A stretch of 64,000 nucleotides of DNA from Planctomycetaceae bacterium (GCA_021372945.1 JAJFTK010000139.1:53970-117969), one strand, 5' to 3'; numbered from the stretch's first letter, positions 3,454 through 60,124 are shown. A program made the numbers and translations. Notes: generated by a model not told the origin, from the letters alone.

Positions 3454-3582
3454 GTAAAACTCTCCCTTGAGTTGTTCGATACCACGGGATAAAAAGAGCC
3501 CCTTTTACAACCAGCCAAAATGCAGGGGTGCCCGGCGAACATAGTGCCGGGCCCCTGTATTATGGTAAGAAGACTCTTTAGA

Positions 3583-4401: not shown

Positions 4402-4498
4402 GACTGTATTCTCCTTACCAAGGCTTACTTTAAACCACCGAATGCTTTACTTTTTTGAATCCGATAAAAACGCATCCACTCGCGTAATACAAAATTCA

Positions 4499-18474: not shown

Positions 18475-19287
18475 ATGAAGCTGTCCCATATTATAGCAGG
18501 CGCGGTCTTGATGCTGGCCGCAACCTGCTGGCCTGCGATGCGGGCCGGCCTGACCCCCGACCCCAACACCTACCTGGTCGACGTCATCAAGCAGATGCAC
18601 GTCGCATGGCCCCGCAACCGCACCATTACGCTGGTCTTCCACGGCCACAGCGTGCCGGCCGGCTACTTTCGAACACCCGTAGTGAACACCTTCAACGCCT
18701 ACCCCCACCTGCTGCACCGGGTCCTTAAGGAACGCTACCCCAACGCCGTCATCAATGTCATTGTCACAGCGATTGGCGGCGAAAACTCCGAGGCGGGCGC
18801 CAAACGCTTTGAGAAGGACGTTCTCAGTCTGCACCCCGATGTCGTCATGATCGATTACGGCATCAACGACCGCAGGCTGACCGCCAGGGAATCCTCGAAT
18901 GCATGGTCATCCATGATCAACAAAGCAAAGGAGGCCAATGTCCCCGTGATCCTGCTGACCCCTACCGGTGTTGAGGGCGTCGATCCGCGCGATTCGCAGG
19001 ACTCGCTGTTCAAGCAGGCCCAGCAGATCCGCCGACTGGCGTTCATGAACGAAGTGGGCCTTGCCGACAGCTACCAGGCGTTCGCACGCTACATCCGCTC
19101 CGGCGGCAAAATGGAGGATCTGCTCTCGCAGATAAATCACCCCAACCGCAAGGGCCACGAACTGGTCGCCGCCGAATTGGCCAAGTGGTTCGGCCGCGGG
19201 GAGGCGCCGGCGGAACCGGCCCAGGAGGAATCGCAACCGGCAGCGCCGCAGGAATCTGAACAGCCCTCCGCGGATCCAAATCAATAG
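18475..19287 (+). CDS. secreted SGNH/GDSL-type hydrolase
   Basis: Signal peptide MKLSHIIAGAVLMLAATCWP. LVFHGHSVPAG (block I), AIGGENS (block II), MIDYGINDRR (block III), then a P/E/Q-rich tail. Confidence 0.8.
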   Translation: MKLSHIIAGAVLMLAATCWPAMRAGLTPDPNTYLVDVIKQMHVAWPRNRTITLVFHGHSVPAGYFRTPVVNTFNAYPHLLHRVLKERYPNAVINVIVTAIGGENSEAGAKRFEKDVLSLHPDVVMIDYGINDRRLTARESSNAWSSMINKAKEANVPVILLTPTGVEGVDPRDSQDSLFKQAQQIRRLAFMNEVGLADSYQAFARYIRSGGKMEDLLSQINHPNRKGHELVAAELAKWFGRGEAPAEPAQEESQPAAPQESEQPSADPNQ

Positions 19288-19772
19288 TGCGCGCCTACCT
19301 GGACATCGAGACGACGGGCTTCAGCTCCGAATACTGCGACATCTCCGTGATCGGCATCGCCGTTGAAAACGCAGGCGCTGTCACGCTCCGCCAGTTGATC
19401 GGCCCCGGCATCACCGACCTCGCCCTCATGGAGGCCCTTTCCGGCATCAGCCGGCTCTACACCTACAACGGCACCTGCTTCGACCTGCCCTTTATCCGCA
19501 AAAAGCTCAAGCTGGATCTCAAGAAATCCATCCCGCACACCGACCTGATGCATGCCTGCCACAAGCAGAATCTCAAGGGCGGCCTCAAGGCCGTTGAGCA
19601 TAAACTTGGCATCAGCCGCCTATCTGCCGGCGTCGATGGCTTCATGGCTGTCCGCCTCTGGTGGGACTATGTCAACAACGCCAACGCCGACTCGCTCAAC
19701 CTGCTGCTTACCTACAACGCCGAAGACGTCACCAACCTAAAAACCCTCCGCGAAAAACTCGGCATCGAATAA
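19287..19772 (+). CDS. RNase H-like (DEDD, YprB-type) exonuclease domain protein
   Basis: 161 aa. YLDIETTG Exo I motif, YNGTCFDLPF, YNAEDV. GTG start overlapping the SGNH stop (TAGTG). Confidence 0.7.
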   Translation: MRAYLDIETTGFSSEYCDISVIGIAVENAGAVTLRQLIGPGITDLALMEALSGISRLYTYNGTCFDLPFIRKKLKLDLKKSIPHTDLMHACHKQNLKGGLKAVEHKLGISRLSAGVDGFMAVRLWWDYVNNANADSLNLLLTYNAEDVTNLKTLREKLGIE

Positions 19773-19954
19773 CCCCATAATACAAATGTGGAGCCGACCT
19801 GTCCGGCAATTTATCCTATAACGATGAGCTTTTCTTTGGAAAATCTATAGAAAACCGGCAAAGAAGTACAAGTTGCGCCTTTGTATAATAGATATGAGGT
19901 TTGAGACTGCCCCTATAAGGAGACAGATTAAGTCGCAATTCAATCACAGGACCC

Positions 19955-20491
19955 ATGGATAGACAGAATCAGGACAATCCAAATGCAAAATTCGTGGAAC
20001 TGTTGACACCTAATTACTACAAGATCCACAGCTTCATTCTTGCGCTGGTCCCCAACAAGACCGACGCAGAGGATATCCTGCAGTCATCGATCAGCTACAT
20101 GTGGGAACATATCGCCGATTTCAAGCAGGGAACCAATTTCCTTTCCTGGGCCTTCACCATCTCGAAGTACCAGGTTTTATCCTATCGCAAAAAGCAGCAG
20201 CGCTCGATCGTGTTCTTTAGTGAAGAAGCTACCCAACTGATCGCCTCTGAGAATCAGGCACTTTCCCGGGAGATCGACGGCCGGCTTGAGGCCCTGGACG
20301 AGTGCATGCAGAAACTTGAGCATCGGGACCTGGCATTCCTGAAGAAGCGTTTCGAGATGAGAACCTCGGCGGCCGATCTGGCGGTTGAATTCAAAACGTC
20401 CGTAAACGTGGTTTATAAACGCCTTGCCCAGATCAAGAATATGTTGTTAAGCTGCATTCACAAAGCGATGGCTGCTGGAGAGGCATCATGA
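19955..20491 (+). CDS. ECF-type RNA polymerase sigma factor
   Basis: 178 aa. Region 2 (DAEDILQSSISYMWEH...FLSWAFTISKYQVLSYRK) and region 4 HTH (SAADLAVEFKTSVNVVYKRLAQIK). ATGA overlap with the next gene. Confidence 0.9.
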   Translation: MDRQNQDNPNAKFVELLTPNYYKIHSFILALVPNKTDAEDILQSSISYMWEHIADFKQGTNFLSWAFTISKYQVLSYRKKQQRSIVFFSEEATQLIASENQALSREIDGRLEALDECMQKLEHRDLAFLKKRFEMRTSAADLAVEFKTSVNVVYKRLAQIKNMLLSCIHKAMAAGEAS

Positions 20492-22140
20492 ATTCATCGG
20501 CAAGAGATTTCAGGCGAGTCAATGAATTGATCGAGTTCTCGCTTGAGGGCTCGATCGCTCCGGAGCAATACCAGCAATTGAACGACTGGATCGTCAGCGA
20601 TCCGGCCATTCGGCGCCACTACTGCGAATATATCCAGTTGACCGTGGGCATCGAACGGCTCAGCGCCAACATCTCGGCGGCGGATCTGCCGCAGTATGAC
20701 TCCATCTGTGACCTCGAATTATGGGATCAGCTTGCCCATCAGGAGAAAACAGCGCCGGAACTGGCGTCTCCGCCGCAACCGCACGAGCTGATCCGAAAGG
20801 TCGTCTATCCCCCGCGAGAGAAACGCAAGATCAGTAAATTCAATGTTTTCATCCTTTTGAATGCGGCGGCCGTTCTCATGATTGTTCTGTTTGCCCGGTT
20901 CGTGACGCCGCAAGCGGGCTTGCCGGTGGCCACCCTGACCGAAAGCGTCAATGCCAAATGGGCCGACGCCGAACACATGGTCAAGGGGCAGCGTTTCGTC
21001 ACCGGCAGTACAAATCTCCTGCTGCGCGAAGGCTGTGCCGAACTGCTGTTTGACAACAACGCCCGGGTCACCATCGAAGCTCCCGCCGAATTTCAGATCC
21101 TTACAGACGATCAGATCAAATTGAATTATGGCCGCGTTTATGCCGTCGTACCCGATCAGGCTTACGGTTTCACGATTTCCACGTCCAACGGCAAGATCAT
21201 TGACCTGGGCACGGAATTCGGGGTGCAGCGCAATCCCTACGGAGACACGGAACTGCATGTCCTCAAGGGCCGCACAAATCTCATCGCCAATACGCAAGGA
21301 CGCAAAATCAATATTTCGGTGACCGAAGGCGCTGCTCGAAAGTTGGTGGGCTCAACCGGCGAAGTGAGAAGCATCGTTTTGCAGAATGACCTTTTTGTGC
21401 GCAAGATCGATTCTGAAAGCAGCCTGATGTGGCAGGGCCAGATGTACTTCAGCCTGGCCGACGCGGTTGGCGGCGGCAGCGGCTTTGGGAGCGGCGGCTC
21501 GGCGCGGATGATCGATCCGGCTTCCGGCAGGAGCACCAAAGAGGACGCCGGAACACGTGCGTCCACCAATGACTATCGCCCGATCGCCTCCAATCTGTGC
21601 ATTGACGGCGTCTTTGTCCCCAATGGCAGCACATCGCAGATCGTGAGCTCGCAAGGACATCTGTTCGAGCAATGCCCTGTGACCAACGGGTTATGCTGCG
21701 AAGAAATTAAAGCGGTGACCACGATGGATTTCGATGTGGTTCCCGACCCCAATATCGCGAACGTGCAGATGCGATGTTTGTTCCTGCACGCGAATATGGG
21801 CATCACGTTTGACCTGGACGCCGTGCGCAAAGTGCTGCCGGACGTAAGCCCTGTGCGGTTCCAGTCCAAGTGCGGGATTCGAAAGTGGGCGCTGCGGCCG
21901 ACGGCGAGCAACGCGGATTTCTGGGTTCTGGTCGATGGCAAAGTGCGCTTTAAACGAGAACACGTCAAGATCGGCCAGATTCATTCAATCGACATCGAAC
22001 TATCGCAGAACGATCGTTTTCTGACGCTTGTGGAAACCGACGGCGGCGACCCGCAAAGCCGAACGTTGAATGGCGTGGTGCTATCCGCCAATGACAGCGA
22101 CTGGGGCTATTTCGCCGATCCGCTCCTGGTGTTGAAATGA
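20488..22140 (+). CDS. FecR-family anti-sigma factor with a C-terminal NPCBM/NEW2-like module
   Basis: 550 aa: cytoplasmic anti-sigma N-domain, one TM (FNVFILLNAAAVLMIVLFARFV), and a FecR domain (...IIDLGTEFGVQRNPYGDTELHVLKGR). The C-terminal ~170 aa (FLHANMGITFDLDAV...FWVLVDGKV...RFLTLVETDGGD...DWGYFADP) fits the NPCBM pattern as I recall it. Confidence 0.8.
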   Translation: MNSSARDFRRVNELIEFSLEGSIAPEQYQQLNDWIVSDPAIRRHYCEYIQLTVGIERLSANISAADLPQYDSICDLELWDQLAHQEKTAPELASPPQPHELIRKVVYPPREKRKISKFNVFILLNAAAVLMIVLFARFVTPQAGLPVATLTESVNAKWADAEHMVKGQRFVTGSTNLLLREGCAELLFDNNARVTIEAPAEFQILTDDQIKLNYGRVYAVVPDQAYGFTISTSNGKIIDLGTEFGVQRNPYGDTELHVLKGRTNLIANTQGRKINISVTEGAARKLVGSTGEVRSIVLQNDLFVRKIDSESSLMWQGQMYFSLADAVGGGSGFGSGGSARMIDPASGRSTKEDAGTRASTNDYRPIASNLCIDGVFVPNGSTSQIVSSQGHLFEQCPVTNGLCCEEIKAVTTMDFDVVPDPNIANVQMRCLFLHANMGITFDLDAVRKVLPDVSPVRFQSKCGIRKWALRPTASNADFWVLVDGKVRFKREHVKIGQIHSIDIELSQNDRFLTLVETDGGDPQSRTLNGVVLSANDSDWGYFADPLLVLK

Positions 22141-22204
22141 TCGCAGTTTGTTACAGATCAGGAGGCGTAATCCTGATACTAAATTTTATTCTAAAGGAGA
22201 TAAG

Positions 22205-24277
22205 ATGATGAGAACTGTAATGTATTTATTATGTGTGGCATCGGTAGCGGCCATGTCCTCGGCGGCCGTTACGTACGTGGACGCCGTTTTCGCAACCGGC
22301 CACGGCGGCACGCCTAACACCTTTCTTGCAGACGGCGGCGCTGCGGTACCCACCAGCACGGGAGACACGGTGGATGGCCTGTGGCGCTATCGCACAGGAT
22401 TTGGCATTGCTCCGGGTACTGCCATCCAGCCGACCGGCACTATAACGCTGACCTCGTCCTGCACAGTCTATGAAGGCACCGGCAACAGCAGTCCGTCGGA
22501 CAATGTTCCGCGGGTCGTGACTACCGCAAGCGTGCCGTCGGGCGCCTATGATGTTTATGTCTATTTCTGGATCGACCAGAGCGGCAGCCCCTGGCGGATT
22601 CGGGCAGGCCTGGTCAACACCGTCGAGCCGCTGGAGTTGTTCACCGGCAGCAACACGTTTACGGCTGACAGTGAGCCTATCGCCTGGGTGGCTTCAGACA
22701 GCGGCGGCCCCCGAAGACTCATGCGGGCCTACCTCGGCCAAGCGAGCGGCACGTCGATCAGCGTTTATGTGGAAGATGCTCCGGCAACAAACGGCAACGA
22801 ACGTACCTGGTATGACGGCATCGGTTATACAAAGGTCTATAATGTGCCGAATTCGCCGTCCGTTACGCCGGTCAATATCGACGGAAGCGTCGGTACGCTG
22901 CTCAACGATACCGAGGCCGAAGTTACATTGCAGTTCAATGCAGGCGCCGACCCCAACAATGCCGTGAACCCCAAAATCAAGAAGCATTATGTTTATCTGT
23001 CGGCCGCAAATGACGCTAATTTGCCGGCCGCACCGACATTTACGATCGACCAGATCGGGACCGACCCGGCCATTTCGATCGGGCCGCTGACATTAAGCGC
23101 AAGCGCCACCTACTACTGGCAGGTTGAAGAAGGCATTACTGATCCAAACGGCGGAGTTTATCCAGCCGGCACTGCCGACAATTATTGGGGACTCGTCTGG
23201 TCCTTCAAAACCGCCAGCCCCGCCTGTACGATCAGTGCGGTCAATCCGCCGCTTGCCGCGGTTCCACAGGGAAGCGCCGCGGTTCTAACAGTCGCAGGTA
23301 CCAACATCACGAATTACCAATGGTACAAGATAGGCTCCCCGGATGTTATGCTGGCCAACGATGGCAAGTACTCCGGCGCAGCCACAGGCGCGCTTACGAT
23401 TACGGACGTTCAGCAATCGGATGAGGGGCTGTATTACTGCGTCGCGAGTAATAGCACAAGCCAGGCTTCCAACCGCGATACCGGGCCGGGTCATGTCATG
23501 ATCGCGCGTCTGGTGAACCACTACCCAATGGAAGTGATCAACAGCGGTGTGACGCCGGATGTTGTCGGCGGCGCCGATATGGTTCTGCATACCAATGGCA
23601 GAGCAATGCCGGCTTTGGCAGCGGGTGTGGTGGGAACCAGCGCTCTGAGCCTGGATACTGCGGCGGAACCACTGGGACAATATGGTCAACTTCCGGCCGG
23701 CGTGTGCGATTACCAGGACCTTACGATCAGCGCATGGGTTTACTGGAAAGGCGGCCTTGCCTTCCAGCGTCTTTTTGCCTTTGGCAATGATGATACGCAC
23801 TTTATAGCCTTTAGTCCGAATATTTTCGGTTCATCGGCCACGTTCACCATCATTAATACGAGCGAACAGAACGTGCAAACCTATAGTCAGTTATTGCCGA
23901 GTAATCAGTGGGTCCATGTGGCGGTCTCGCTCAACGGTGACGCGGGACGTTTGTATATCAATGGCGTCAGGGCGGCGGTAAACACCGGCATGACGCACGA
24001 CCCGATTGATTTCAGGCCTTCGCTCAACTATATCGGCAGGAGCCTGGTTGCCGAGCAAGCGTATTTCGACGGCATGATCGACGAACTGAAGATTTACAAC
24101 TATGCCATGACTAACACACAGGTGGCACAAGAATATATCGCCGTCAGGGGCGGATATGTATGCGATGCCGATGGCACCGATTCGTTGACCTACGATTTCA
24201 ACCGCGACTGCCGGGTTGATCTGGCCGACTTTGCTCGGATCGCGACGGATTGGCTCAACGACAACCGTATCTACTAA
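22205..24277 (+). CDS. secreted LamG (concanavalin-like) / Ig-domain protein with a dockerin-like C-terminal tag
   Basis: Start at MMRTVMYLL (AGGAG RBS), with a signal peptide. Ig I-set-like ITNYQWYK...SDEGLYYCVASN. LamG module (ISAWVYWKGG...FDGMIDELKIYNYAMT). C-terminal YDFNRDCRVDLADFARIATDWL. Confidence 0.85.
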   Translation: MMRTVMYLLCVASVAAMSSAAVTYVDAVFATGHGGTPNTFLADGGAAVPTSTGDTVDGLWRYRTGFGIAPGTAIQPTGTITLTSSCTVYEGTGNSSPSDNVPRVVTTASVPSGAYDVYVYFWIDQSGSPWRIRAGLVNTVEPLELFTGSNTFTADSEPIAWVASDSGGPRRLMRAYLGQASGTSISVYVEDAPATNGNERTWYDGIGYTKVYNVPNSPSVTPVNIDGSVGTLLNDTEAEVTLQFNAGADPNNAVNPKIKKHYVYLSAANDANLPAAPTFTIDQIGTDPAISIGPLTLSASATYYWQVEEGITDPNGGVYPAGTADNYWGLVWSFKTASPACTISAVNPPLAAVPQGSAAVLTVAGTNITNYQWYKIGSPDVMLANDGKYSGAATGALTITDVQQSDEGLYYCVASNSTSQASNRDTGPGHVMIARLVNHYPMEVINSGVTPDVVGGADMVLHTNGRAMPALAAGVVGTSALSLDTAAEPLGQYGQLPAGVCDYQDLTISAWVYWKGGLAFQRLFAFGNDDTHFIAFSPNIFGSSATFTIINTSEQNVQTYSQLLPSNQWVHVAVSLNGDAGRLYINGVRAAVNTGMTHDPIDFRPSLNYIGRSLVAEQAYFDGMIDELKIYNYAMTNTQVAQEYIAVRGGYVCDADGTDSLTYDFNRDCRVDLADFARIATDWLNDNRIY

Positions 24278-24333
24278 TGTGACGTTTCAATGCCCTGGTT
24301 TCCGGCGGCTTGCTGCCGGGATTGAGTACAAAA

Positions 24334-24366
24334 AGCGAGGGAGCACGCCTCCCTCGCTTTTGATCT
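24334..24366 (+). terminator. intrinsic terminator between the LamG gene and the glycosidase gene
   Basis: AGCGAGGGAG-cacgc-CTCCCTCGCT (10-bp GC-rich stem) followed by TTTGATCTCTTTTT. An A-run upstream makes it potentially bidirectional. Confidence 0.75.
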
Positions 24367-24385
24367 CTTTTTGGGGAAAGCAGTA

Positions 24386-27300
24386 ATGAGCAAACTCGCT
24401 TGTCTATTCGCTGTAACTCTGCTGGTCGTCATGTCGCCTGGCGCGGCACATTCGCTGAACGTTGATTTTAACGGCAACAGCTATGGTTCCGTGATCGAGC
24501 AAACTCAATCGGGCTTTCAGGTATACAACGCCCGCAACGAAGTGCCCGGCGACTTTGTCGCAAGGCAGTATAGCGCATTTGGCACAACCGTTACGATTAC
24601 TCCATCTTGGGCCGCCGGAGCGACAGCCGCCGCGATGCAGTCGTGGAGTCGCGGCAATAGCTACGGCTATTCAACCGCGCCTGGGGACATGCTCGATCTC
24701 GTGATCGACTGGATCGGAACCGACCAGCGCGAAGTCGGCGACCCCATGACGCTAACCATCAGCGGCCTGCCCGCCGGCGTCTATGAATGGCGCTCCTATC
24801 ACCACGATACCCAAAACCAGACCGGCCATTTCAGTGTAACCGTCAATGACGCCGCCGGTTCGGTCACAATGACCGGCCTGCAGGTTTCCAGCTCGCAATC
24901 ACTGTCGGACGTTACATTGGCGGATGTGACAAAATTTGATACCACGATTACCTCCGACGGCGTCAACCCTGTCACGTTAGTTTTTGAAGCCACCGATGCG
25001 CCCAACTACAACACCATGTTCGTGATGAATGGTTTTGAGATCGCCAATGGCATTTCATATGCGTGGCGATCCGGCGCGGCCTTGCGGCGTCCCGTCTGTG
25101 CCGCACAGCCCATGTGGCTGATTCATATCGATACCTGGAACTACGCCGACCCGCAAAAGATCATCGCACTGATCCCGCCGGACATTCGCCCCTATGTCGT
25201 GATGAATATTGGGCTCTCGATCAGTCATGATGAGACGACAAGCCGGTTCCAGGTTGCCGAGTATGGCAGCGAGATCGCCAAATCGTGGCTCAGGGCCTGC
25301 GCCGAGAACCGCATGTGGGCCATTGTCCAGCCCTCCAGCGGCGGATTCAGTCAATTCTCGGATTTCGATCTGTCCATTTATGAAGAGTTTTACCGCGACT
25401 ATCCCAACATGATCGGCTTTAATTACTGTGAGCAATTCTGGGGGTACGACAGCACCACGGATCCGCTTTCGGCCAAATGGGCGGACCGTATCGCTCATTT
25501 CGCCAACCTGTTGAAACTCAGTGATCGTTACGGCGGATATCTCGTGGTCTCCTGGTGCGGAAATCAGTGGTCCCCCAACATCAACCCGATTGCCATGCTC
25601 AAACGCAATCCCGCGTTTGCGGCTGCGTGCCGGCAATATACCGATAACTATATCCTCTGCGAGAAATACACCCAGCAGTCCTATATTTCTGACATGGAGA
25701 GTCTCTGCCTCGGCACCTGGCTGTCGGGCTATAGCGGCCAATACGGTATCCGCTACGATGATACCGGGTGGACGGATGCTAGCGGGGAACATGCCAACTT
25801 TACGATGGCAACCTACGGCGCGCCGTTTCTTGAACATGTCATGCTGACCGGAATGACCGTGATCGACGCCCCTGAATTGATTTGGACGCAGTGTTTCAGA
25901 GAAATCAGCGCCGGCTCGACATCCAATGGCTATACCATGCGCAGGTGGGAAACGTTCCCGCAGTTTGACAACGTCAGCGTCGATCTTTTCCGCAAGATCC
26001 TCGATGGCACGGTCCGCATCCCAACCCGCAGGGAGGTCATCGACCGCACAAAGATCGCCATCATCAACAACATCAATTCAGGCAGTATTGACGACATCTA
26101 CAGTTCGCCTGAGACGCTATTTGAGGGTCTCTATCGCATGGACGGCGACGGCAATCTGAGATACAATAAAACGTTCTTCAAAAAAACGGGCCGCTATCCG
26201 ACGATACCGACCGTCTATCAATTGGACGATGCCGATGCTCAATCGTTCCAGGTGCAGGTGAACAAATCCGCCTACTCGACCCGTTGGCCGAGCACATCTG
26301 CTAAAGTGACTGAACTGAATAATTTGTTCCCGGAAGAATACACCGGCGACATTTACGCGAGCCGCCACGAGAACGCCTGGGTCACCTACAACCCGTACAA
26401 GACCGGCCAGACGGCAAGCGGTTCTATTCCATTCAAATACAATACCTGTGACCGCATGGAGCTGACGTATTCGCAATATACCGCCGGAGTGATCAAAGAA
26501 TATGCCGACCGCGTGACATTCTATCTGAGCAATTACGACAACGTTATCGATACCAGCCTCAAGACCGACACGATCATCATTCACGGCTGTACCTCTGAGC
26601 CGACGTACTCTTATGCAGACAGAGCAAGCCATCAGGCCAGCATTGTGACCGGCAATTGGGATGGCGGCGTTTTTACATTGACCGTTCGGCACAACGGCCC
26701 GCTCGATATCACCGTCAATTGTGGTGGAACGGCGACGGGACGCTTGACCGATTATACCACGGCCGTCCTTGCCGCCCCTGCCGCACCTTTGACCTATACG
26801 GGTCCGCTTCAGTACGAAGCCGAGTGCTTCGATTACAGAAACATCGCAGGTATCGTCAAAGGCGGGTACCCTGAACCCGTCCGCAATTACACCGGCCAGG
26901 GCTATCTGCAATTTGGAACCAATTCAGCCGCCGCGGTCCGAGATACCGTTACGGTTCCCAAGACCGGCACCTATCGTCTCGAAACCAGGTACGCCGTCAT
27001 CGGCACAGATATTACAGCCATCGACCTGTACGTAAACGGAACGCGCGTTTGCGCGCCTGTCTTTTCACAGACCCCGACGCTTAGCGACTGGGCCGTCAAC
27101 CAGGAAAACATAATATTGACCGCGGGCGCCAATACCATTGAATTCAGAGCAATCGCCGCGGCGCCAAGTTCTATCTATTTTGACAATATCGTTGCAGTTC
27201 CCTCAGTGCATGGCGAAGGCATGATCATTCAGGAAGGCCAAAATGGCTTTGCCGGCCTGGATGGCACGATAGAAAATACGTATGCCGGCTATACGGGAAG

Positions 27301-27775
27301 CGGCTACGCCAATCCGGACGAATCCGTTGGCTCCGGCGTAAACTGGCGCGCCGATCTTGACTCTTCGGCAGTTAAAGCGTTCACTTTCAGATACGCCTGT
27401 GCCGACAACAGGACCGCGGACCTGATTGTCAATGGCGAAATTGTCGCAGCTCAAATCCAATTCCCCTCAACCGGTTCCTGGTCGGCCTGGGATTTCGTCA
27501 CGGTGTACGCGAGTACAGACTCCGGCGTTTCCGGCGTGCGGCTCCAATCAAGCTTGGAGGCGGGTCTGCCCAATATTGATTACATCGAGCTGACCGGCGT
27601 CCTTCTTTACGGTGACATGAATCGCAACGGTATCGTAAACAGCGATGACCTGCCCGAATTCGCCGCCTCGTGGCTGGAAGAAAATGGCGAGCTGGACTTG
27701 AACGCGGACGGCCTGATTAACATGCACGAATTCACGCAGTTCGCGGCCAACTGGCTGGCTGCTTCAACGCACTGA
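24386..27775 (+). CDS. large secreted glycoside hydrolase-like protein (TIM-barrel core, possibly GH98-like) with two CBM6/35-like modules and a two-repeat dockerin
   Basis: Signal peptide MSKLACLFAVTLLVVMSPGAAHS. Core WLIHIDTWNYADP...MIGFNYCEQFWGYD. Two CBM-like modules (YEAECFDY...GQGYLQFG...NTIEF and GYTGSGYANP...IDYIELTG). Dockerin GDMNRNGIVNSDD...DLNADGLINMHEF. The GH family assignment is tentative. Confidence 0.75.
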   Translation: MSKLACLFAVTLLVVMSPGAAHSLNVDFNGNSYGSVIEQTQSGFQVYNARNEVPGDFVARQYSAFGTTVTITPSWAAGATAAAMQSWSRGNSYGYSTAPGDMLDLVIDWIGTDQREVGDPMTLTISGLPAGVYEWRSYHHDTQNQTGHFSVTVNDAAGSVTMTGLQVSSSQSLSDVTLADVTKFDTTITSDGVNPVTLVFEATDAPNYNTMFVMNGFEIANGISYAWRSGAALRRPVCAAQPMWLIHIDTWNYADPQKIIALIPPDIRPYVVMNIGLSISHDETTSRFQVAEYGSEIAKSWLRACAENRMWAIVQPSSGGFSQFSDFDLSIYEEFYRDYPNMIGFNYCEQFWGYDSTTDPLSAKWADRIAHFANLLKLSDRYGGYLVVSWCGNQWSPNINPIAMLKRNPAFAAACRQYTDNYILCEKYTQQSYISDMESLCLGTWLSGYSGQYGIRYDDTGWTDASGEHANFTMATYGAPFLEHVMLTGMTVIDAPELIWTQCFREISAGSTSNGYTMRRWETFPQFDNVSVDLFRKILDGTVRIPTRREVIDRTKIAIINNINSGSIDDIYSSPETLFEGLYRMDGDGNLRYNKTFFKKTGRYPTIPTVYQLDDADAQSFQVQVNKSAYSTRWPSTSAKVTELNNLFPEEYTGDIYASRHENAWVTYNPYKTGQTASGSIPFKYNTCDRMELTYSQYTAGVIKEYADRVTFYLSNYDNVIDTSLKTDTIIIHGCTSEPTYSYADRASHQASIVTGNWDGGVFTLTVRHNGPLDITVNCGGTATGRLTDYTTAVLAAPAAPLTYTGPLQYEAECFDYRNIAGIVKGGYPEPVRNYTGQGYLQFGTNSAAAVRDTVTVPKTGTYRLETRYAVIGTDITAIDLYVNGTRVCAPVFSQTPTLSDWAVNQENIILTAGANTIEFRAIAAAPSSIYFDNIVAVPSVHGEGMIIQEGQNGFAGLDGTIENTYAGYTGSGYANPDESVGSGVNWRADLDSSAVKAFTFRYACADNRTADLIVNGEIVAAQIQFPSTGSWSAWDFVTVYASTDSGVSGVRLQSSLEAGLPNIDYIELTGVLLYGDMNRNGIVNSDDLPEFAASWLEENGELDLNADGLINMHEFTQFAANWLAASTH

Positions 27776-27794
27776 TCTCTGCGTCCTGGTTGAG

Positions 27795-29228
27795 TTAATC
27801 AGAGATCCAGCGAACGCGGATCGCATCGGCACAGGCGGTGGATCCATCGCCGGCGGTATCGATCTCGACATAGCCGGGCTGTCCGCCTGTCATGGGATAC
27901 GTTCCCAACACGTTCCATTGCCCGCCGTCCGCCTGTTGGTTGATGCTCAGATTTGCCGTGCCGGCGCCGTGCCTCACCTGCACAGGGATGGAAGTGCCGC
28001 GTGATGAATACTGGGTCCACCAGAGGGACACCTCGTAGCGGCCGGTTTGCGCCGGGGTGAATGTCCAGCGATAGGATGCCGCCGCGCGGGCCCAGAGGGA
28101 ATTGCTGCCGTAAGAGCCGGAGCCGCCGGAAATGCCCCATGTGCCGGTGTAGGAGGTTCCGCTGCCGCCGTTATCCATGACACTTTCCGGTTTGGTGCTG
28201 TCAACTTTGACAAATCGAACCGCGTCAGCGCAACTGCTGGTCGGATAGGAACCCAAGGCGGTCAGTTTCACCGTCCCGCTTGCACTAAAATAATAGGTTC
28301 CGAGCAAATTCCACTTGCCGCCGTTGGTTTGCTGGTTGATCGTCAGCGATGCTGTTCCGGCGGCATTGCTGATCGTCACCGGTACCGCCGTGCCGCGCGA
28401 CGAATACGCGGTCCACCACATGTACACTTGATAGGTTCCGGCCGACGGCGGAGTGAAGCGCCAGCTATAAGTTGCGCCATTACGGGCCCAGAGGCTATTT
28501 GAACCATAGCAGCCGGAGCCGCTGGAAACACCCCAGGTGCCGGTCGAAGAAGTCCCGGACGCGCCGTTGTCGATGGTTGTTTGCGTCGGAGAGGTGTCTG
28601 TGCCTGTGCCTGTGCCTGTGTCTGTGCCTGTATCGGTTCCGGTGTCAGTCCCTGTGTCTGTGCTGCCGGCTGTCCAGTTATCGCGGCGATAAAAACGGCA
28701 TCCCCAGTCAACCATATCCTGTTTGCGGCGCGTGCGTTCGACGACGCCGATGGAAGCCGACAGCGCTTCACGTGTGACGATCGAAGAGCTGGTGAGTTCT
28801 TTAACCAGGCCGGTATGCCCGGTGCTCGGTCCGCCGTACTCAGCCCGCCATACCCAAATGTCCCACGGCTGCAGGTTTTGGACATTGTTGATCCGCACAA
28901 GATGCGGCACACCAGCGTAAAGTTTGGAAGTCGAGTAAGGGTAAGCTGCCGACTTATTTTCCGCCACGTAGCTGGGCAGCGCCAGACAGCGGCATACATA
29001 AGACGCGCAGTCCACCCCCTCGATACTCGAACTGTCCCAAGAATTATTATCGATCCACCCCTTATTGCCGCCATACACATACCGTTCGTTCAATCCATGG
29101 TACGAGTAGGTACTGCAATTGCTGCGTGTCCAACCGGCATCATAGGCCGCGCCGGCGGATGCGGCAAAACATAACGAGACGAGAATCAGATATTTTGCAC
29201 TCTTTTGCTTAGATGAAAAACACGTCAT
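27795..29228 (-). CDS. secreted NlpC/P60-type cysteine peptidase with a TD/TG linker and two golvesin-C-like modules
   Basis: GVDCASYVCRCL (Cys nucleophile context) and STGHTGLV (His). (TD/TG)n linker. Two repeats of GTWG.SSGSG.YGSNSLWAR....Y.W.FTP...G.Y.V..WWT.YSSRGT..PV. Confidence 0.75.
   Translation of the reverse strand: MTCFSSKQKSAKYLILVSLCFAASAGAAYDAGWTRSNCSTYSYHGLNERYVYGGNKGWIDNNSWDSSSIEGVDCASYVCRCLALPSYVAENKSAAYPYSTSKLYAGVPHLVRINNVQNLQPWDIWVWRAEYGGPSTGHTGLVKELTSSSIVTREALSASIGVVERTRRKQDMVDWGCRFYRRDNWTAGSTDTGTDTGTDTGTDTGTGTGTDTSPTQTTIDNGASGTSSTGTWGVSSGSGCYGSNSLWARNGATYSWRFTPPSAGTYQVYMWWTAYSSRGTAVPVTISNAAGTASLTINQQTNGGKWNLLGTYYFSASGTVKLTALGSYPTSSCADAVRFVKVDSTKPESVMDNGGSGTSYTGTWGISGGSGSYGSNSLWARAAASYRWTFTPAQTGRYEVSLWWTQYSSRGTSIPVQVRHGAGTANLSINQQADGGQWNVLGTYPMTGGQPGYVEIDTAGDGSTACADAIRVRWISD
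28593..28662. repeat. imperfect hexanucleotide microsatellite (GTGCCT/GTGTCT) encoding the TD/TG linker
   Basis: The sequence ggtgtctgtgcctgtgcctgtgcctgtgtctgtgcctgtatcggttccggtgtcagtccctgtgtctgtgct is read on the minus strand as STDTGTDTGTDTGTDTGTGTGTDT. Confidence 0.85.
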
Positions 29229-30427
29229 TGAACATCTCCTGCATAATCAAAAGTAACAATGCGTCCGTGGGATGTGTCACCGGTCATGAGCGCCACACCG
29301 GCAGGCGTTGCCGTCATGCGGCGCGTCGCGTCAAAGGAAAACCAGACGTTGATTTGCGTCGTTTCGGCTCGTGCGTTAAGGGTATCAATGCGTGCCAGGC
29401 GGCGGATACGGTAATCCCCCTCAAGGGTATATAGCACCCAAACAATGCCGTTTTCATCCGTGACTGTCTCGTCGATATAGCCGACCGGCTGATCGAACGG
29501 GAGGACCAAAACATTCGAACTGTTTTCTGTTTTCAGGATCAGATCGTTTCCCTGCACTTCGGCCGTCACCTGCTGATCCTTGGGCTGCTCGACCAACTCG
29601 GACGCGGGCGTCTGATTTGCGGCGGCCAGCTTTTCCGGGTGGTTTTGATTGGGCGCGTATAATTTTTTGGAATCGCGGTCATAGCTGAATTTCGCCGGGT
29701 ATTCGAAGTTTTTCCTCAGAGCGGCGGAACGCGCTTCATGCAATCGACCGTTTTGAAACTTGTGGATCTTGTCTTCTAATTGTGACACGACGATCACGGA
29801 GTTATCCGCCGGATCGATGATCAGATCGCTGGCATGGGATGTTGGCACTTCGATCGTTGTGCTGAGGCTGCCGTCGGCAGTAAAACCCAGAACCCTGTGC
29901 TTGACACTGTCGAGGACATAGAGGATGCCATTGGCGCCGGCGATCGCGGCCGGTCCAAGCGGCGGGCCGTCTGCCGGAGTGAGCAGCCCGAATGCCGCAT
30001 CATCGCTGTTCCATTCTTTCTCGACTACAACGGTCTGCTGAAGCGCCAGCGGCTGCGGCTTGAGAACGGTGTATTGCGGGCAGATGAACAATGTGACGTC
30101 CGGGCTTGTGATAAGCGATTGATCGTCTTTCCCAACGGCCACCCTATAGGTCAATTCTGTCCCTTGCACGGATTGTGCGGGGATCGTGCCCGTCCAGCGA
30201 TTGGCGCCAGCGGTTGTCATGGCCGCCTGGTACTCATCGCTGCCGCAGGTCCAGCTTAAAGTGACATCCTTCGCTGCATCATCGACAATGGCTCCAATCG
30301 CGATGTCATGGCCGGCTTCGGCAAAACGCGGCGCCTTAAAAAGAGAAACCTGGGCAAACACTTGCGAACTGCCCAGCAGCGTTAAACAAATGAGAAAACG
30401 CCTGCATAGCGCATTGATCATGAACAT
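29225..30427 (-). CDS. secreted hypothetical protein (N-terminal Ig-like region plus beta-propeller-like repeats)
   Basis: Start moved to MFMINALCRRFLICLTLLGSSQVFAQ (signal peptide, AGGAAAGG upstream). ILYVLDSVKHRVLGFTADG and SDLIIDPADNSVIVV resemble NHL/propeller blades. ATGA overlap with the NlpC/P60 gene. Confidence 0.6.
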   Translation of the reverse strand: MFMINALCRRFLICLTLLGSSQVFAQVSLFKAPRFAEAGHDIAIGAIVDDAAKDVTLSWTCGSDEYQAAMTTAGANRWTGTIPAQSVQGTELTYRVAVGKDDQSLITSPDVTLFICPQYTVLKPQPLALQQTVVVEKEWNSDDAAFGLLTPADGPPLGPAAIAGANGILYVLDSVKHRVLGFTADGSLSTTIEVPTSHASDLIIDPADNSVIVVSQLEDKIHKFQNGRLHEARSAALRKNFEYPAKFSYDRDSKKLYAPNQNHPEKLAAANQTPASELVEQPKDQQVTAEVQGNDLILKTENSSNVLVLPFDQPVGYIDETVTDENGIVWVLYTLEGDYRIRRLARIDTLNARAETTQINVWFSFDATRRMTATPAGVALMTGDTSHGRIVTFDYAGDVQ

Positions 30428-30838
30428 GCCTTTCCTAATGAATTGCAGTTGTGATTCACCCGTCCCAATAGTTTCAGCGCATACTGAAATCTTAAATTCA
30501 ACCGCTTTGACGGATATACCGCATCGCACTGGAAAAAAATGCGATGAAATCAGAGGATGCTCACCAAAACATCGAAAAACATTCCCCAAGAGATTATTAC
30601 TGTTACGCGATTTTACGCCTGGGTTTTTTTCATTGTTCGGAAAATTCTCTTTTTCCGATAGAAAATGCTTTTACCCCGATGAATATGGATATGGAATCTT
30701 CATCAATACGGCGTATCAGAGCAACACACGGATGAAGGTGATTTTAAGAATCGATATGAGAGGACAACCAATGCATGCACTCAAAGGCTCACGCCGGCAG
30801 GACACATCGCGGAATCCTGGATAAATACTGCGGTTGTG

Positions 30839-30862
30839 TTTCTAAATCTTTCTATCCAACTT
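30839..30862. repeat. left direct repeat (orphan copy of the comM 3' end)
   Basis: TTTCTAAATCTTTCTATCCAACTT. Its reverse complement would encode KLDRKI-stop but is not attached to a gene. Confidence 0.85.
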
Positions 30863-30879
30863 ACCACCAATGAACCATT

Positions 30880-31434
30880 CTAGCCTTTTAGTGCATCGTT
30901 CACTTCTTTGATGTCAAACGCCTCAGGATCAAATTCGCCGCCGAGCCATTCAAGCCTGTCCTCATGCTCCTCATGATCAGGATCATCGAGGATTTCCAGT
31001 AATTCCTCGTATCCCAAGGCGCCGCCGCAATCTTCCGGCGGACAGGCTCGTCGGCCATCCAGACATACAGGGTATTTCACGCCCTTCTGCGGCTCCTTAA
31101 TCTCCACCAGTTCCACCACATGCTCCCAGTTGTCACCATAATCATACGTATAGATAAATCGTTCCCGCGGCCGGCGCACCAGGTCGGACAGCCTGCCCTT
31201 GCGCTCATCCATTGTGTCGTCCATATCGTCATCCGGATCGAGCACGCTGTACTCATCGTCGCCGGCAATGAACGAATGCAGATGCGTATTCGTCCAGCCC
31301 ATTACATCCTGAATCACATCATGCAGTTTATCCAGCCGGATCGCGGCATCCACTTCGAACTTCCGCCAAACCCGCGGCTCAACATCCGCCAGCCAGATTT
31401 CCAATTGATAAATCGTTCCTGCGTTCTTAGCCAT
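30880..31434 (-). CDS. pRiA4b ORF-3 / MM3350-like domain protein
   Basis: 184 aa. IYQLEIWLADVEPRVWRKFEV, HLHSF, YTYDYGDNWEHVVEL and CPPEDCGG are the hallmark motifs of the PRiA4_ORF3 family. Confidence 0.88.
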   Translation of the reverse strand: MAKNAGTIYQLEIWLADVEPRVWRKFEVDAAIRLDKLHDVIQDVMGWTNTHLHSFIAGDDEYSVLDPDDDMDDTMDERKGRLSDLVRRPRERFIYTYDYGDNWEHVVELVEIKEPQKGVKYPVCLDGRRACPPEDCGGALGYEELLEILDDPDHEEHEDRLEWLGGEFDPEAFDIKEVNDALKG

Positions 31435-31619
31435 ATCGTCTCCTGATTCAAACTATTCAGCAGCACGGGCATCCTACCCGTATGTTCTGTGCAACGATGC
31501 CGCAATTGGGGCAACAGAAAGGCGATTCCCTTCAGGTTTTCTACCGCAACGGAATCTCATTTGCACCTTTCTACAAAGCACTCGTCATCCCTCTTGCGAT
31601 CTGTTTCTTTGTCGATTTT

Positions 31620-33416
31620 TCACAGGGCATCAAAGTATGTTCGGATTCTCTGTGCCATCAAGAAACGACGTTGTTCCAGAAAGTCCTCATACTCTGGAAC
31701 CTCACCGTCAAGCAGCGATTCAGGCAGACAGTTCATAGTGAGGTTCTTTCGCATTTCGAGTTCGTCTGTAATGCCGCCGTACTTTTTTTTGCTGCCGCTG
31801 CATTGATTCATGAGTTCCTTAAAATAAACATCTGGCGCCCTGTCGCCTATAGCAATGTTGATCTCACTCTGTGCGATGACAAAGTTGGCGATCTGATTGT
31901 ATCGACCCTTGTTAAGTCCCTGGTTCTTGAGATAGTTTTTCGGGAAAACATGATGGACATCACATCGATTTAATATCAGATCACGGACTGCTATATCACG
32001 GGAAAGAAAACCTCTATCATTCAGTTTGACCTGTGCCGCCTTATATACCATGAAATAAGGGCTATTGCTTGACGAGGTATCCATCTGCTGAGGTAAAAGG
32101 GCAGTCCAGAAACTATCAGATAAACGGGCACTAATTACCGCGCTCGTATAGTCTGCAAGGCCCTGTGCATCAATTTGTCGAATATCCAAATCAAAGCTCG
32201 TTTCGGGATTTCCGGAATATTGTCCCGTCAGCAGTGACATGACGTACCAGCGGCGAACCAAATGTTCAATTTCGTTGGGCTTCATATCTTCCGCCCGACC
32301 CAGCAGATATAAAATATAAGCAAAATTAACTGCGTTTTGCCCTCCAATAAGATCACTGTTAACAAACCCTGCGGATCTCATTATCATTACAAAACGTTCG
32401 AAGTGTGTTTTGTTCATAAAGTTGAGGATGCCTTTTTTCAGCAGGTTAAAAGAGCTTTCGGCAATGACATCCTCATATTGTTTGGTTTCAAAATTCCTGC
32501 CAGAAAGCAAGGCCACAAGGTCCTGGAGCTTACCTCGGCGGAATTCTGCGGTGAAGGCAACGCGAAGCATGTCAGTGTACGAGGGATCATAAATATCGTC
32601 ATTTACGTCCTTAATCCACGCCATTTTGGAGAAGAACTCGGATGCTGCAAATGCGCGGTCACCCTCTTTAATTTTACCATAAAACTCCGGTGCCACAGCC
32701 AAATGGCAGAAGTAGTCAATAGCTTTCCGCAGAACGTTTCCCCCGTAGCTTTCATTTGCGGCTATTTTAGACATCGCAAAATCTGCTTGCGAGAGTTCAG
32801 CGCCTGCTGAATTGACGCGAATGAATATCTCGGTAACAGTTTCTATATCAAGATCTTCCGCAAGGTCAATAATGCCTACGTGGTTGTTAATGATCTTACG
32901 CAGCTTTTCCAGCACCTTCGATATTGCACGCTTATTTGCTTCAGGATTGTTTTCTAAATAGCTCTCCGTTAAATCCGTTAAACTTGAATCGGGAGCGAAC
33001 ACGTCCGCGACATCGTAAATCCACGCGGGATTTTTTCTTATGGCAGGGTTTGCAACTTCGAACCTTTCTTCCAATGGATGAAAGGCAATTCTGATGCGGA
33101 CTGTTTCATAATCCTTAGTCAAAACCTCACGGCCAAGGATTGCTGCCATCAATGCTGTGACGCGCTGTTGACCATCAATTAGGATGCGTTTCCCTGCCGA
33201 AAGTGATCCGTCTTTTAGCCGCACTGTCGGATTTCGCCATGCAATCAGGTACCCGACGGGAAACCCCTGGTATAACGAATCAAGCAAATTACGTACCTTC
33301 TTTGCTTCCCACACAAAGGGCCGTTGTATTTCGGGAATTGCAATCTCGCCTGATTTTACCCATGTTAGAAGTGTTTCAATCGGATGCGGTGTTACAGAAT
33401 ACCTTTGAGTGCTCAT
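31620..33416 (-). CDS. GmrSD-type (DUF262 + DUF1524) putative type IV modification-dependent restriction endonuclease
   Basis: N-terminal [11 protein letters not shown] and [11 protein letters not shown] (DUF262/ParB-like). C-terminal [12 protein letters not shown]...[19 protein letters not shown] (DUF1524 His-Me finger). Start at MSTQRYS with AGGAG RBS; the track start at 33461 is less likely. Confidence 0.88.
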
Positions 33417-33497
33417 GCTTCTCCTTTCAGAATGGGCCAGAAGCTTTTTTCGAGAATCCATTCTTCTGTTCGCATTTCTGCCCTTTACTTATTGACT

Positions 33498-33521
33498 TTT
33501 CTAAATCTTTCTATCCAGCTT
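33498..33521. repeat. right direct repeat (overlaps the comM stop codon)
   Basis: TTTCTAAATCTTTCTATCCAGCTT. Its reverse complement is the real ...KLDRKI-stop end of comM. Confidence 0.85.
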
Positions 33522-35027
33522 GCGGTAGCTGACGGCTTCGGCGATGTGTTCTGCGCCGATGCGCTCAAGGCCTTCGAGGTCCGCGATGGTTCGCGCGACC
33601 TTGCAGATCTTGTCGTGCGCCCGCGCCGACAGGTGAAACTCTGTGATCGCCTGCTTGAGCATCCCCTCGGCCTGTTCGTCGAGGCCGCAGAATTTTTCCA
33701 CCTGCTTATGCGTCATCGTCGCGTTGGTTTTCGTGCTGTCGCCGAAGCGTTTGGTCTGCGTGCGCCTGGCCTGCTGCACCAGCCCGCGCAGTTCCCTGGA
33801 GCCCGTTCCGCTGGTGGTGCTGCGGAGCTTTCGAAACTCCACCGGCGGCACCTCGATATGAATATCCATACGGTCCAAAAGCGGCCCCGAGACCTTCGAC
33901 AGGTAGCGCTCCACCTGCACCGGCGTGCACCGGCACCGCTTGGCGTGCGTACCGAAATATCCGCACGGGCACGGGTTCATCGCCGCCAGCATCACGAACC
34001 GCGCTGGGAATTGCAGCGTCCCCCTGGCTCGTGCGATCGTCACCGTGCCCTCCTCCAGCGGCTGGCGGATCATCTCCAGCACGTGCCGCGGAAACTCCGC
34101 GAACTCATCGAGAAACAATATCCCATGATGTGACAAGCTCAGTTCGCCCGGCCGTGGATGCGTCCCGCCGCCCACCAGCGCCGCGCCGGTGGCGGTATGA
34201 TGGGGCGCCCGCACTGGCCGCGTCCCGATCAGCGCCGTGCCCTTGGGCAGCAGCCCCACCGACGAATACACCCGCGTCGTCTCCAGTGACTCCGGCAACG
34301 TCATATCGGGCAGGATCGTGGCCATCCGCTGCGCCAGCATCGTCTTGCCCGCCCCCGGCGGCCCGATCATCATCACGTTGTGCCCGCCCGCCGCGGCGAT
34401 CGTCAGCGCGCGCTTCACGCTCTCCTGGCCCTTCACGTCCGCAAAATCCACATCGTAGGCGCACGCCCGCTCGAACAGCCGATCCATATCCACCGCCGTC
34501 GCCTCCAGCGGCAGCAGGTCCGACAAAAACCCCACCGCCTGCGCCAGCGAGCCAATCGCAAATACCTCCAGGCCCTGCACCACCGCCGCCTCCGCCGCGT
34601 TTTCCAGCGGCACCAATATCGCCTTGTACCCGTGGTTGGCCGCCGTCAGGGCCATACTCAACACGCCATTGACCGGCCGCACCCGCCCATCCAGGGCAAG
34701 CTCGCCCACGACTACGGTCTGCCGCAGCCGTTCGCTCGTCAGCGCCCCCATGCACGCCAGCACCCCCAGCGCAATCGGCAGATCGAACGCCGGGCCTTCT
34801 TTCTTCACATCCGCCGGAGCAAGGTTCACAAGATAGGGCATCTCCGGGTACTTGAATCCGGAATTAAGAATTGAGCTGCGGACCCGCTCGATGCTCTCCT
34901 TGACCGCCGTATCCGGCAGCCCAACGATCGTCGGCTTCTGCATCGCCGAGCGCGAAATATCCACCTCCACCTCGCACAAGATCCCCTCGATCCCTTCCAA
35001 CGTCAGCGAAAACACCCGTGCCAGCAT
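33501..35027 (-). CDS. comM: YifB/ComM-family Mg-chelatase-like AAA+ ATPase
   Basis: 508 aa. N-terminal Lon-protease-like domain, Walker A MIGPPGAGKTMLAQR, GILFLDEFAEF, the Cys cluster CPCGYFG...CRC, and a C-terminal ChlI-like domain. Confidence 0.93.
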   Translation of the reverse strand: MLARVFSLTLEGIEGILCEVEVDISRSAMQKPTIVGLPDTAVKESIERVRSSILNSGFKYPEMPYLVNLAPADVKKEGPAFDLPIALGVLACMGALTSERLRQTVVVGELALDGRVRPVNGVLSMALTAANHGYKAILVPLENAAEAAVVQGLEVFAIGSLAQAVGFLSDLLPLEATAVDMDRLFERACAYDVDFADVKGQESVKRALTIAAAGGHNVMMIGPPGAGKTMLAQRMATILPDMTLPESLETTRVYSSVGLLPKGTALIGTRPVRAPHHTATGAALVGGGTHPRPGELSLSHHGILFLDEFAEFPRHVLEMIRQPLEEGTVTIARARGTLQFPARFVMLAAMNPCPCGYFGTHAKRCRCTPVQVERYLSKVSGPLLDRMDIHIEVPPVEFRKLRSTTSGTGSRELRGLVQQARRTQTKRFGDSTKTNATMTHKQVEKFCGLDEQAEGMLKQAITEFHLSARAHDKICKVARTIADLEGLERIGAEHIAEAVSYRKLDRKI

Positions 35028-60062: not shown

Positions 60063-60124
60063 GATCATATCTCCTTGCGTTCTATACTGACTTATCTTCA
60101 TCATCACGTTCCAAATCGCCCGGC

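Follow-up and report, generated by a model that had tools for sequence, protein, structure and literature searches.

An orphan comM tail beside a solitary BrxU/GmrSD-like gene in a planctomycete: a candidate recombination scar at a comM-end hotspot

The gene comM is a known landing site for foreign DNA. In Acinetobacter it is the target of the Tn7-like AbaR/Tn6022 islands, which go into the body of comM, create duplications of 5 bp, and bring tnsABCD-type genes with them. DNA can also be joined to a chromosome by homology-facilitated illegitimate recombination in natural transformation, as in Acinetobacter and Streptococcus pneumoniae, where one conserved anchor is combined with a non-homologous second joint. 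Here we analyze a stretch of 64,000 nucleotides from a Planctomycetaceae bacterium (GCA_021372945.1 JAJFTK010000139.1:53970-117969; the whole stretch is called the window below), in which a 24-nt copy of the 3′ end of comM lies beyond the two genes that follow comM itself. The nearer gene encodes a DUF262 protein that resembles the BrxU and GmrSD restriction enzymes, and the farther one a protein of the PRiA4_ORF3 (MM3350-like) family.

Several described systems bear on this locus. The family HEC-05 is BrxU, enzymes of the BrxU type are known to work alone, and GmrSD-like genes embedded in type I restriction-modification (R-M) and Hma systems have already been described (Payne et al., bioRxiv 10.1101/2024.01.29.577857, where Picton 2021 is cited). 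PRiA4_ORF3 genes occur as passenger ORFs of ISAzba1-group (Mutator-like) transposons (PMC3942029). Cis-mobilizable elements (CIMEs), remnants that retain att sites but no integrase at the 3′ end of a conserved gene, are known, as is their tandem accretion (PMC5704250). A sequence-only reading of the window had proposed a low-GC, two-gene defense islet with the repeats as its ends and the PRiA4_ORF3 protein as a partner of the nuclease. We favor a different reading, in which the repeat is a recombination scar at a comM-end hotspot, the PRiA4_ORF3 gene is a resident of the locus, and the DUF262 gene is a lone, acquired gene that is not paired with it. We give this reading a probability of about 0.5, a figure that covers the joining event jointly with the gene-level conclusions.

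The repeat is well defined. Its two copies, TTTCTAAATCTTTCTATCCA[A/G]CTT, lie on the same strand and agree at 23 of 24 positions (coordinates of all features are collected in the table). They are the only matches within the window when up to three mismatches are tolerated, against 0.00 expected from 100 shuffles, and an unbiased listing of repeats in the window also picks up the pair (family D12). Read on the minus strand, both copies give KLDRKI-stop, and the sole mismatch, CTG versus TTG, is silent, as both codons specify leucine. The right copy terminates the comM/yifB ORF, whose product matches TIGR00368 with 584.6 bits (cut-off 362.4; E 1.5e-175) and shows the full ComM/YifB set of ChlI (PF13541), Mg_chelatase (PF01078), and Mg_chelatase_C (PF13335). 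Between the copies lie only the two minus-strand genes, which share the orientation of comM and carry no recombinase domain. In all these respects the sequence-only reading, which had described the repeat, the true comM end on the right, the orphan tail on the left, two genes in between, and no integrase, was borne out.

The Logan contig L081 is 100% identical to the window over 4351 bp spanning the comM end, the DUF262 and PRiA4_ORF3 genes, the next gene, and all junctions, which indicates that the arrangement is not unique to one assembly, with the caveat that the two assemblies were possibly built from the same reads. No minus-strand promoter-like or terminator-like site was predicted in the 81-nt spacer between comM and the DUF262 gene, and transcription of the DUF262 gene by read-through from comM is therefore plausible.

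The closest relative found, the Logan contig L104 (SRR26038653; ComM 90% identical at the amino acid level), carries comM and, after a 49-bp spacer, a PRiA4_ORF3 gene in the same orientation (76% amino acid identity), with neither a DUF262 gene nor a comM-tail copy past PRiA4_ORF3. Nucleotide identity between the window and L104 is 78.6% for PRiA4_ORF3 and 79.6% for comM, that is, the two genes have diverged about equally. Relative to L104, whose synteny with the window is anchored by three further genes, the window has two extras: the 2-kb DUF262 gene in the gap between comM and PRiA4_ORF3, and an 11-kb block in the gap between PRiA4_ORF3 and the RNase_H_2-like gene. This block codes for an extracytoplasmic function (ECF) sigma factor, a FecR-like protein, a 709-aa protein and a 1134-aa secreted protein (a LamG-like/secreted set), a Golvesin_C protein, and a 400-aa protein with a signal peptide. 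Its comM-proximal end abuts the orphan comM tail, and no repeat was found at its far end. A third, degenerate comM tail was sought between DUF262 and PRiA4_ORF3, and past PRiA4_ORF3 in L104, and none was found.

The left repeat copy thereby appears as the junction between PRiA4_ORF3 and the 11-kb block, and not simply as the far end of a 2.6-kb insert. The earlier view of the repeats as islet ends holds in that the repeat duplicates the comM end, and fails in where the left copy lies. The orphan tail is still 23/24 identical in non-coding DNA, and comM itself is only 80% identical in DNA between the window and L104. The tail thus cannot date back to the split of the two lineages but is far younger, which makes the scar recent, whereas the comM-PRiA4_ORF3 adjacency is old.

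A second trace of comM lies just outside the orphan tail, where an inverted copy of the codons AEHIAEA reaches a match that was equaled in 0/400 shuffles. This fragment may go back to a hairpin native to the ancestral site, or it may have arisen as a side product of an untidy joint. Apart from it, the islet has no terminal inverted repeats, and no analogous fragments were found in the three other inserts described below (L005, L027, and L023).

The DUF262 gene can be assigned to a known, highly mobile family of restriction genes, in which it is a new and solitary member. Its ORF extends over 31620-33461, and the start is most likely at 33416 instead of 33461, since this yields 598 aa, the length of all homologues. 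The N-terminal domain matches PF03235 (GmrSD_N, a ParB/Srx-like NTPase domain; E 2.2e-29, model positions 3-197 of 199), and in PADLOC the protein falls under HEC-05 (PDLC04151; E 6.9e-34). The best PDB match is BrxU (7p9k), with an E of 6.9e-9 for the single sequence and 3.1e-12 for the profile. When the C-terminal 314 residues are taken alone, they match the HEC-05 model (E 4.6e-6) at positions 346-593 of its 600, and the final 164 aa match it with an E of 0.0047. The protein thus follows the HEC-05 family collinearly from end to end. Among 40 homologues, the DGQQR motif (residues 81-85, in the stretch 80-89) has invariant D81, G82, Q83, and R85, and Q84 is kept in at least 90%; near the C terminus, which has a DVHHVFP...N motif (residues 486-492), D486, H488, H489, P492, N507, and N511 are invariant. 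By analogy with BrxU-type enzymes, the protein should act alone, as an NTP-dependent, modified-DNA-specific nuclease against phage DNA, with the DUF262 domain supplying the NTP dependence and a putative C-terminal His-Me/HNH-like domain the cutting.

The composition and the relatives of this gene point to an origin elsewhere. Its GC of 0.45 and its G+C at third codon positions (GC3) of 0.46 are foreign to its neighbors, which have a GC3 of 0.60-0.83, and we therefore consider it horizontally acquired. The 598-aa family comprises more than 120 clusters at 76-86% identity in Planctomycetota, Bacteroidales, Hansschlegelia, Chelatococcus, and Paracoccaceae (Alphaproteobacteria), and Gemmatimonadaceae, a conservation that appears unusually high for a gene scattered over phyla. 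Homologues are found in type I R-M systems, between hsdM and hsdS/hsdR (L082, L095-L103, L111, L112, and L114), after BrxL (L089, L122, and L127), and near an Eco57I-type methylase (L084). In the closest relatives with readable flanks (L110, L094, and L084), the gene comes straight after one for an Mrr_N protein; identity to the window protein is 86% at the amino acid level in L110 and 97% over the first 105 residues in L094. DNA homology to other DUF262 genes starts 11-15 nt before the ATG and stops within 13 nt of the stop codon, and these narrow limits indicate that the gene came without R-M, bacteriophage exclusion (BREX), or Mrr_N partners. The window holds no hsdM, hsdS, hsdR, or BREX genes.

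Two observations concern the relatives themselves. The Mrr_N proteins are about 190 aa long (L094:259-843, L110:3-560, and L084:7304-7891) and may form a two-gene module with DUF262 that is not present in the window. Hansschlegelia-like contigs (L098-L103, L111, and L114; for example, L098:5866-15967) carry hsdM, DUF262, PRTase-CE, an NADAR-HsdS-like fusion, and hsdR, and the type I R-M operon of L098 adjoins a serine recombinase gene and a DUF2924 gene.

The PRiA4_ORF3 gene has a different history. The family assignment made from sequence alone proved correct (PF07929, E 2.5e-67 over 2-173 of 173; PDB 2I1S, E 5.7e-43 over residues 3-179), and the CPPEDCGG and YDYGDNWEH motifs are conserved. 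With a GC of 0.535 and a GC3 of 0.605, the gene is close to its neighbors (GC 0.55-0.60, GC3 0.63-0.73) and to the window as a whole (GC 0.563). Of the foreign, low-GC insert that had been proposed, the DUF262 half stands, and the PRiA4_ORF3 half, being host-like, does not. The closest homologues, at 60-76% identity, all come from Phycisphaerae, Sedimentisphaerales, or Planctomycetota. Other PRiA4_ORF3 genes are found amid flagellar genes (L105), by NucS_C and methyltransferase genes (L108), and by genes for a large methyltransferase and a PLD-like protein (L109). The family also includes the "TnpR" of IS1096.

Taken together, these observations bear on whether DUF262 and PRiA4_ORF3 form a two-gene defense system that moves as one islet, with PRiA4_ORF3 as its sensor, regulator, or antitoxin. 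The genes stand side by side in one orientation with the repeat on either side, some PRiA4_ORF3 homologues have methyltransferase, PLD, or NucS-like genes nearby, and the family rides on ISAzba1-group transposons (PMC3942029). However, no PRiA4_ORF3 gene occurs in any of 53 DUF262-family loci from metagenomes, genomes, and IMG/VR, and no DUF262 gene in any of 15 PRiA4_ORF3 loci. The nearest DUF262 relatives are instead paired with Mrr_N or type I R-M genes, BrxU-type enzymes act alone, and no PADLOC model matches the PRiA4_ORF3 protein. In addition, PRiA4_ORF3, one member of the supposed pair, occupies this same place in L104, where the repeat is missing. We consider such a system very unlikely. 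Because the families do not co-occur, and because PRiA4_ORF3 is host-like and sits beside comM in L104 with no DUF262 gene, the two appear to be chance neighbors that became adjacent through separate histories and not a functional pair.

The duplication of the comM end is not restricted to the window. For 77 related comM genes, we searched the 10 kb downstream for a same-strand copy of the terminal 24 nt, and we scanned 1.3 Mb of comM loci for short direct repeats without bias. Three further genomes carry such a duplication around different cargo (see the table), and 4 of the 22 repeat pairs in the 1.3 Mb lie at a comM 3′ end, with none at the 3′ end of any other long ORF. In the window, L005, and L027, all six mismatches between copies are silent (P ~1e-4), as expected of tails that derive from two functional comM alleles. 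In the same three genomes the outer end of the repeat falls at the stop codon (+0-3 nt), and the inner end varies. The copy in L023 lies 2.1 kb downstream of the comM 3′ region, and some of its differences are non-silent. Older orphan tails, sought by peptide pattern, were found in L005 and L027 only.

None of the four comM-tail inserts encodes a recombinase. A regular-expression scan for tyrosine-recombinase motifs, which may miss divergent or distant enzymes, came back empty for the 10 kb on either side of 78 comM loci and for the surroundings of comM in the window. IMG/VR yielded no ComM relatives and no attP-bearing contig; its lone exact match to a 21-mer of the tail lies inside a phage ParB-like gene and is a chance match. 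Several candidate agents were discarded: PRiA4_ORF3 as the insertion enzyme, since the other three inserts lack it; a dif/Xer site, since the 24-mer is not palindromic; and Tn7-like elements, insertion sequences, and integrons, since there is no transposase, terminal inverted repeat, or attC-like hairpin and the duplication has the wrong length.

In many Phycisphaerae (L025, L034, L037, L041, L050, L076, and others), a STAS-domain gene follows comM after about 180 bp, and elsewhere this gap is 1-8 kb. A distance to the next gene that ranges up to 8 kb suggests that the region is a variable hotspot. The genes on the 30838 side of the window lie beside comM in none of 80 GTDB comM loci, nor in L104; ComM in the GTDB loci is at most 83% identical with no downstream synteny, and with a best ComM identity of 90% (L104) strain-level relatives are lacking. 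Searches for proteins identical to ComM or to the products of the 454-aa and 400-aa ORFs downstream gave no matches.

Table. Features of the comM locus in the window, and comM-end repeats in other genomes (prefixed with the contig).
Feature	Position	Strand	Details
Synteny anchors shared with L104	17840-19772	.	order and relative orientation kept
CxxCxxCC protein	17840-18271	-	82% aa identity to L104
GDSL lipase-like	18475-19287	+	58% aa identity to L104
RNase_H_2-like	19287-19772	+	75% aa identity to L104
11-kb block	19773-30838	.	missing in L104 (L104:2330-2400); host-like GC
Inverted copy of comM codons AEHIAEA	30797-30817	+	21 nt, 18/21 identical; 21 nt outside orphan tail
Left orphan comM tail	30839-30862	-	23/24, CTG>TTG silent; starts 17 nt past PRiA4_ORF3 stop; apparent PRiA4_ORF3/11-kb-block junction
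PRiA4_ORF3/MM3350-like protein	30880-31434	-	184 aa; syntenic with comM in L104
Spacer, DUF262 to PRiA4_ORF3	31435-31619	-	185 nt; without a third, degenerate comM-tail copy
Solitary BrxU/GmrSD-like putative type IV restriction enzyme (PADLOC HEC-05 family)	31620-33416	-	598 aa
Spacer, comM stop/repeat to DUF262 start	33417-33497	-	81 nt
Right repeat copy	33498-33521	-	last six codons of comM + stop + 3 further nt (KLDRKI*)
comM segment AEHIAEA	33534-33554	-	partner of inverted copy; 12 nt (four codons) upstream of duplicated tail
comM/yifB, Mg-chelatase-like AAA+ ATPase	33501-35027	-	508 aa; GC 0.64, GC3 0.83
comM-end repeat, Anaerohalosphaeraceae metagenome-assembled genome	L005:11472-12147		58 nt, 1 difference (TAA/TGA); cargo DUF4160 + DUF2442 (81, 86 aa), no integrase
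comM-end repeat, Anaerohalosphaeraceae	L027:11493-14474		37 nt (37-39), 4 differences, all silent; cargo two Peptidase_M16 genes
comM-end repeat, single-cell genome	L023:5607-7786		at least 66 nt, 89% identical, interrupted by contig end; cargo PilT-like ATPase + ECF sigma factor, opposite strand

Some further features were seen along the way. The GC3 of comM (0.83-0.84) is far above that of adjacent genes (0.60-0.73) in both the window (33501-35027) and L104 (184-1710), and when comM was tested for mosaicism against L104 and L001, its 3′ third came out only somewhat nearer to L104. An AI-2E transporter gene occurs in L104 and is missing from the window. A 12-nt tandem repeat (GTGTCTGTGCCT-like) at 28594-28675 encodes the TDTG linker of the Golvesin_C protein, and Pfam found nothing in the small ORFs of the 30186-30824 flank. 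Paralogous gene pairs at 1805-4402 and 54155-62291 give long, diverged direct repeats, of 300 and 255 nt at a spacing of 1785 nt with several more between 54 and 62 kb. Beyond the L027 repeat come genes for GH130 and STAS proteins. Past the comM stop in L001 (1810-1850) and L002 there is a GC-rich palindromic element (CTGGGAACGCGGGCGTC(C/T)CGCCCGC...); in L002 a 28-nt stretch of the palindromic region is repeated exactly 4.5 kb upstream (7038-7065 and 11530-11557), and the element looks dispersed, like repetitive extragenic palindromes.

We propose the following course of events for the window. The PRiA4_ORF3 gene would have been a resident, already the downstream neighbor of comM in the lineage. 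A foreign BrxU/GmrSD-like gene, stripped of its usual R-M, BREX, and Mrr_N neighbors, would then have landed between comM and PRiA4_ORF3. The scar would have formed when this version of the locus, comM-(DUF262)-PRiA4_ORF3, was joined to another that had the 11-kb block downstream of comM. In one possible route, a donor was anchored by homology in comM, and its second joint was non-homologous and fell within the last comM codons of the recipient; in another, a circular intermediate entered by a single crossover within the 24-nt tail. Either route would keep comM intact and leave the old tail of the recipient in front of its own downstream block. A scar of this kind accounts for the cargo gene being a resident comM neighbor in L104, and also for the silent differences, the variable inner boundary, the missing recombinase, and the inverted comM fragment, which itself points to an untidy, non-site-specific joint.

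Several points weigh against this proposal. In the absence of strain-level relatives, neither an empty site nor the version with comM next to the 11-kb block is directly seen, and L104 could instead have lost the block. The preference for comM ends, seen at 4 of about 80 comM genes against none of the other long-ORF ends, fits a trans-acting, site-specific recombinase better, and in three cases the orphan tail begins 3-17 nt after the last cargo stop, which is tidier than random illegitimate joints. The integrase search, being a regular-expression scan, may have let divergent or distant recombinases escape. As for the nuclease assignment, the DUF262 part of the DUF262+DUF1524 architecture read from sequence alone is secure and the DUF1524 part is not: Pfam does not detect PF07510 in the protein, and its C-terminal half gives only HNH_4 at an E of 0.14. 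The AlphaFold2 model (mean predicted local distance difference test score, pLDDT, 60; N-terminal domain disordered) is too poor to confirm a nuclease fold, and with it Foldseek retrieved nothing from the PDB at E <= 0.001.

The main rival to a scar is that a recombinase encoded elsewhere accretes integrase-less, CIME-like modules at the comM end, each carrying the comM tail as its att site. The window would then be a tandem of two modules, (DUF262+)PRiA4_ORF3 and the 11-kb block, with an att repeat between them. Such a process is doubtful but deserves attention. The geometry is that of attL and attR built from the 3′ end of a target gene, for which integrase-less, accreting CIMEs are a precedent; four genomes show it at the end of the same gene, and the 1.3 Mb contain it at the end of no other; the outer boundary is constant at the stop codon; the silent differences suit an element-borne site that is required to complete comM; and some of the cargo, namely the defense gene and the DUF4160/DUF2442 pair, is typical of mobile elements. 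It thus explains the comM-end preference and the tidy cargo ends better than a scar does. However, beyond the missing recombinase in the four inserts, the missing motif near 78 comM loci, and the missing attP-bearing contig in IMG/VR, no full-size integrase element was seen, and the repeats vary in length (24, 37, 58, and at least 66 nt) with inner ends that are sharp and variable. The L027 cargo consists of housekeeping-like M16 peptidases, that of L023 lies on the opposite strand, PRiA4_ORF3 in L104 is syntenic with comM, lacks a distal repeat, and shows a divergence similar to that of comM, and an inverted comM fragment sits at the joint.

In a wider form, which we hold more tentatively still, Phycisphaerae may have a dedicated means of inserting small, integrase-less modules exactly at the comM stop, each bringing or leaving a silently differing copy of the last comM codons, and so build tandem arrays with a defense gene, a toxin-antitoxin-like pair, peptidases, and regulators. 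The agent might, just as tentatively, be an unrecognized trans-acting recombinase that acts on ...YRKLDRK-stop, or a transformation-linked process tied to comM. That the repeat is merely a chance match or an assembly artifact is barely credible. The window does come from a metagenome-assembled genome, the repeat is short, and the supporting Logan contig may go back to the same reads. But no matches are expected by chance, and the copies differ, by 1 base here and by 1-4 in other genomes, which makes them distinct sequences and not a collapsed k-mer. Two assemblers also agree on the junctions, the pattern is present in three further independent genomes, one of them single-cell, and the differences between copies in the window, L005, and L027 are all silent.

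We consider the repeat more interesting than the gene pair. For the pair, the analysis removes a false lead, as DUF262 plus PRiA4_ORF3 does not appear to be a new defense system, and the BrxU-like restriction family gains a member outside its usual R-M and BREX hosts. For the repeat, the end of comM emerges as a place where DNA has probably landed repeatedly in the Phycisphaerae, a class of bacteria that has received little study, and gene-tail duplicates that differ silently could be used to trace how DNA with no recombinase of its own becomes fixed beside a conserved gene.

Compared with described systems, the DUF262 protein resembles BrxU/HEC-05 in being a single polypeptide of about 600 aa with an N-terminal DUF262 domain, a DGQQR motif, and a long helical middle. 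It has RNLLDS at the place of RLFDS in BrxU and a C-terminal HHVFP...N where BrxU has DHIYP, and its relatives sit within type I R-M and BREX loci, which is the known pattern of the family. Unlike in BrxU, significant alignment is limited to the N-terminal ~60 residues and one short stretch; unlike in BrxU and GmrSD, DUF1524 is not detected by Pfam and the first motif residue is His rather than Asp or Glu; and unlike its embedded relatives, the window gene stands alone downstream of comM. The PRiA4_ORF3 gene differs from its transposon-borne relatives in lacking a transposase and inverted repeats and in being syntenic with comM in two genomes. As with AbaR/Tn6022, comM serves as a landing site for foreign DNA, whereas insertion inside comM, a 5-bp duplication, and tns genes are all absent.

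With CIMEs the locus shares direct repeats of a target-gene 3′ end, a target that is kept intact, few cargo genes, no recombination genes, and possibly tandem modules. It differs from them in that about 80 related genomes showed no parental integrative and conjugative element, integrative and mobilizable element, or integrase at comM, and in that the repeat varies in length among genomes, one cargo gene (PRiA4_ORF3) is a syntenic resident in L104, and an inverted target fragment lies at the joint. Homology-facilitated illegitimate recombination usually deletes DNA of the recipient, whereas the window shows a duplication, nor is this process known for so strong a preference for a single gene end. 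It does match the locus in needing no element-encoded enzyme, in placing a conserved anchor beside a variable region, and in leaving a sharp, variable inner boundary, and its cargo is the neighbor of the anchor in the donor, as PRiA4_ORF3 is the neighbor of comM in L104.

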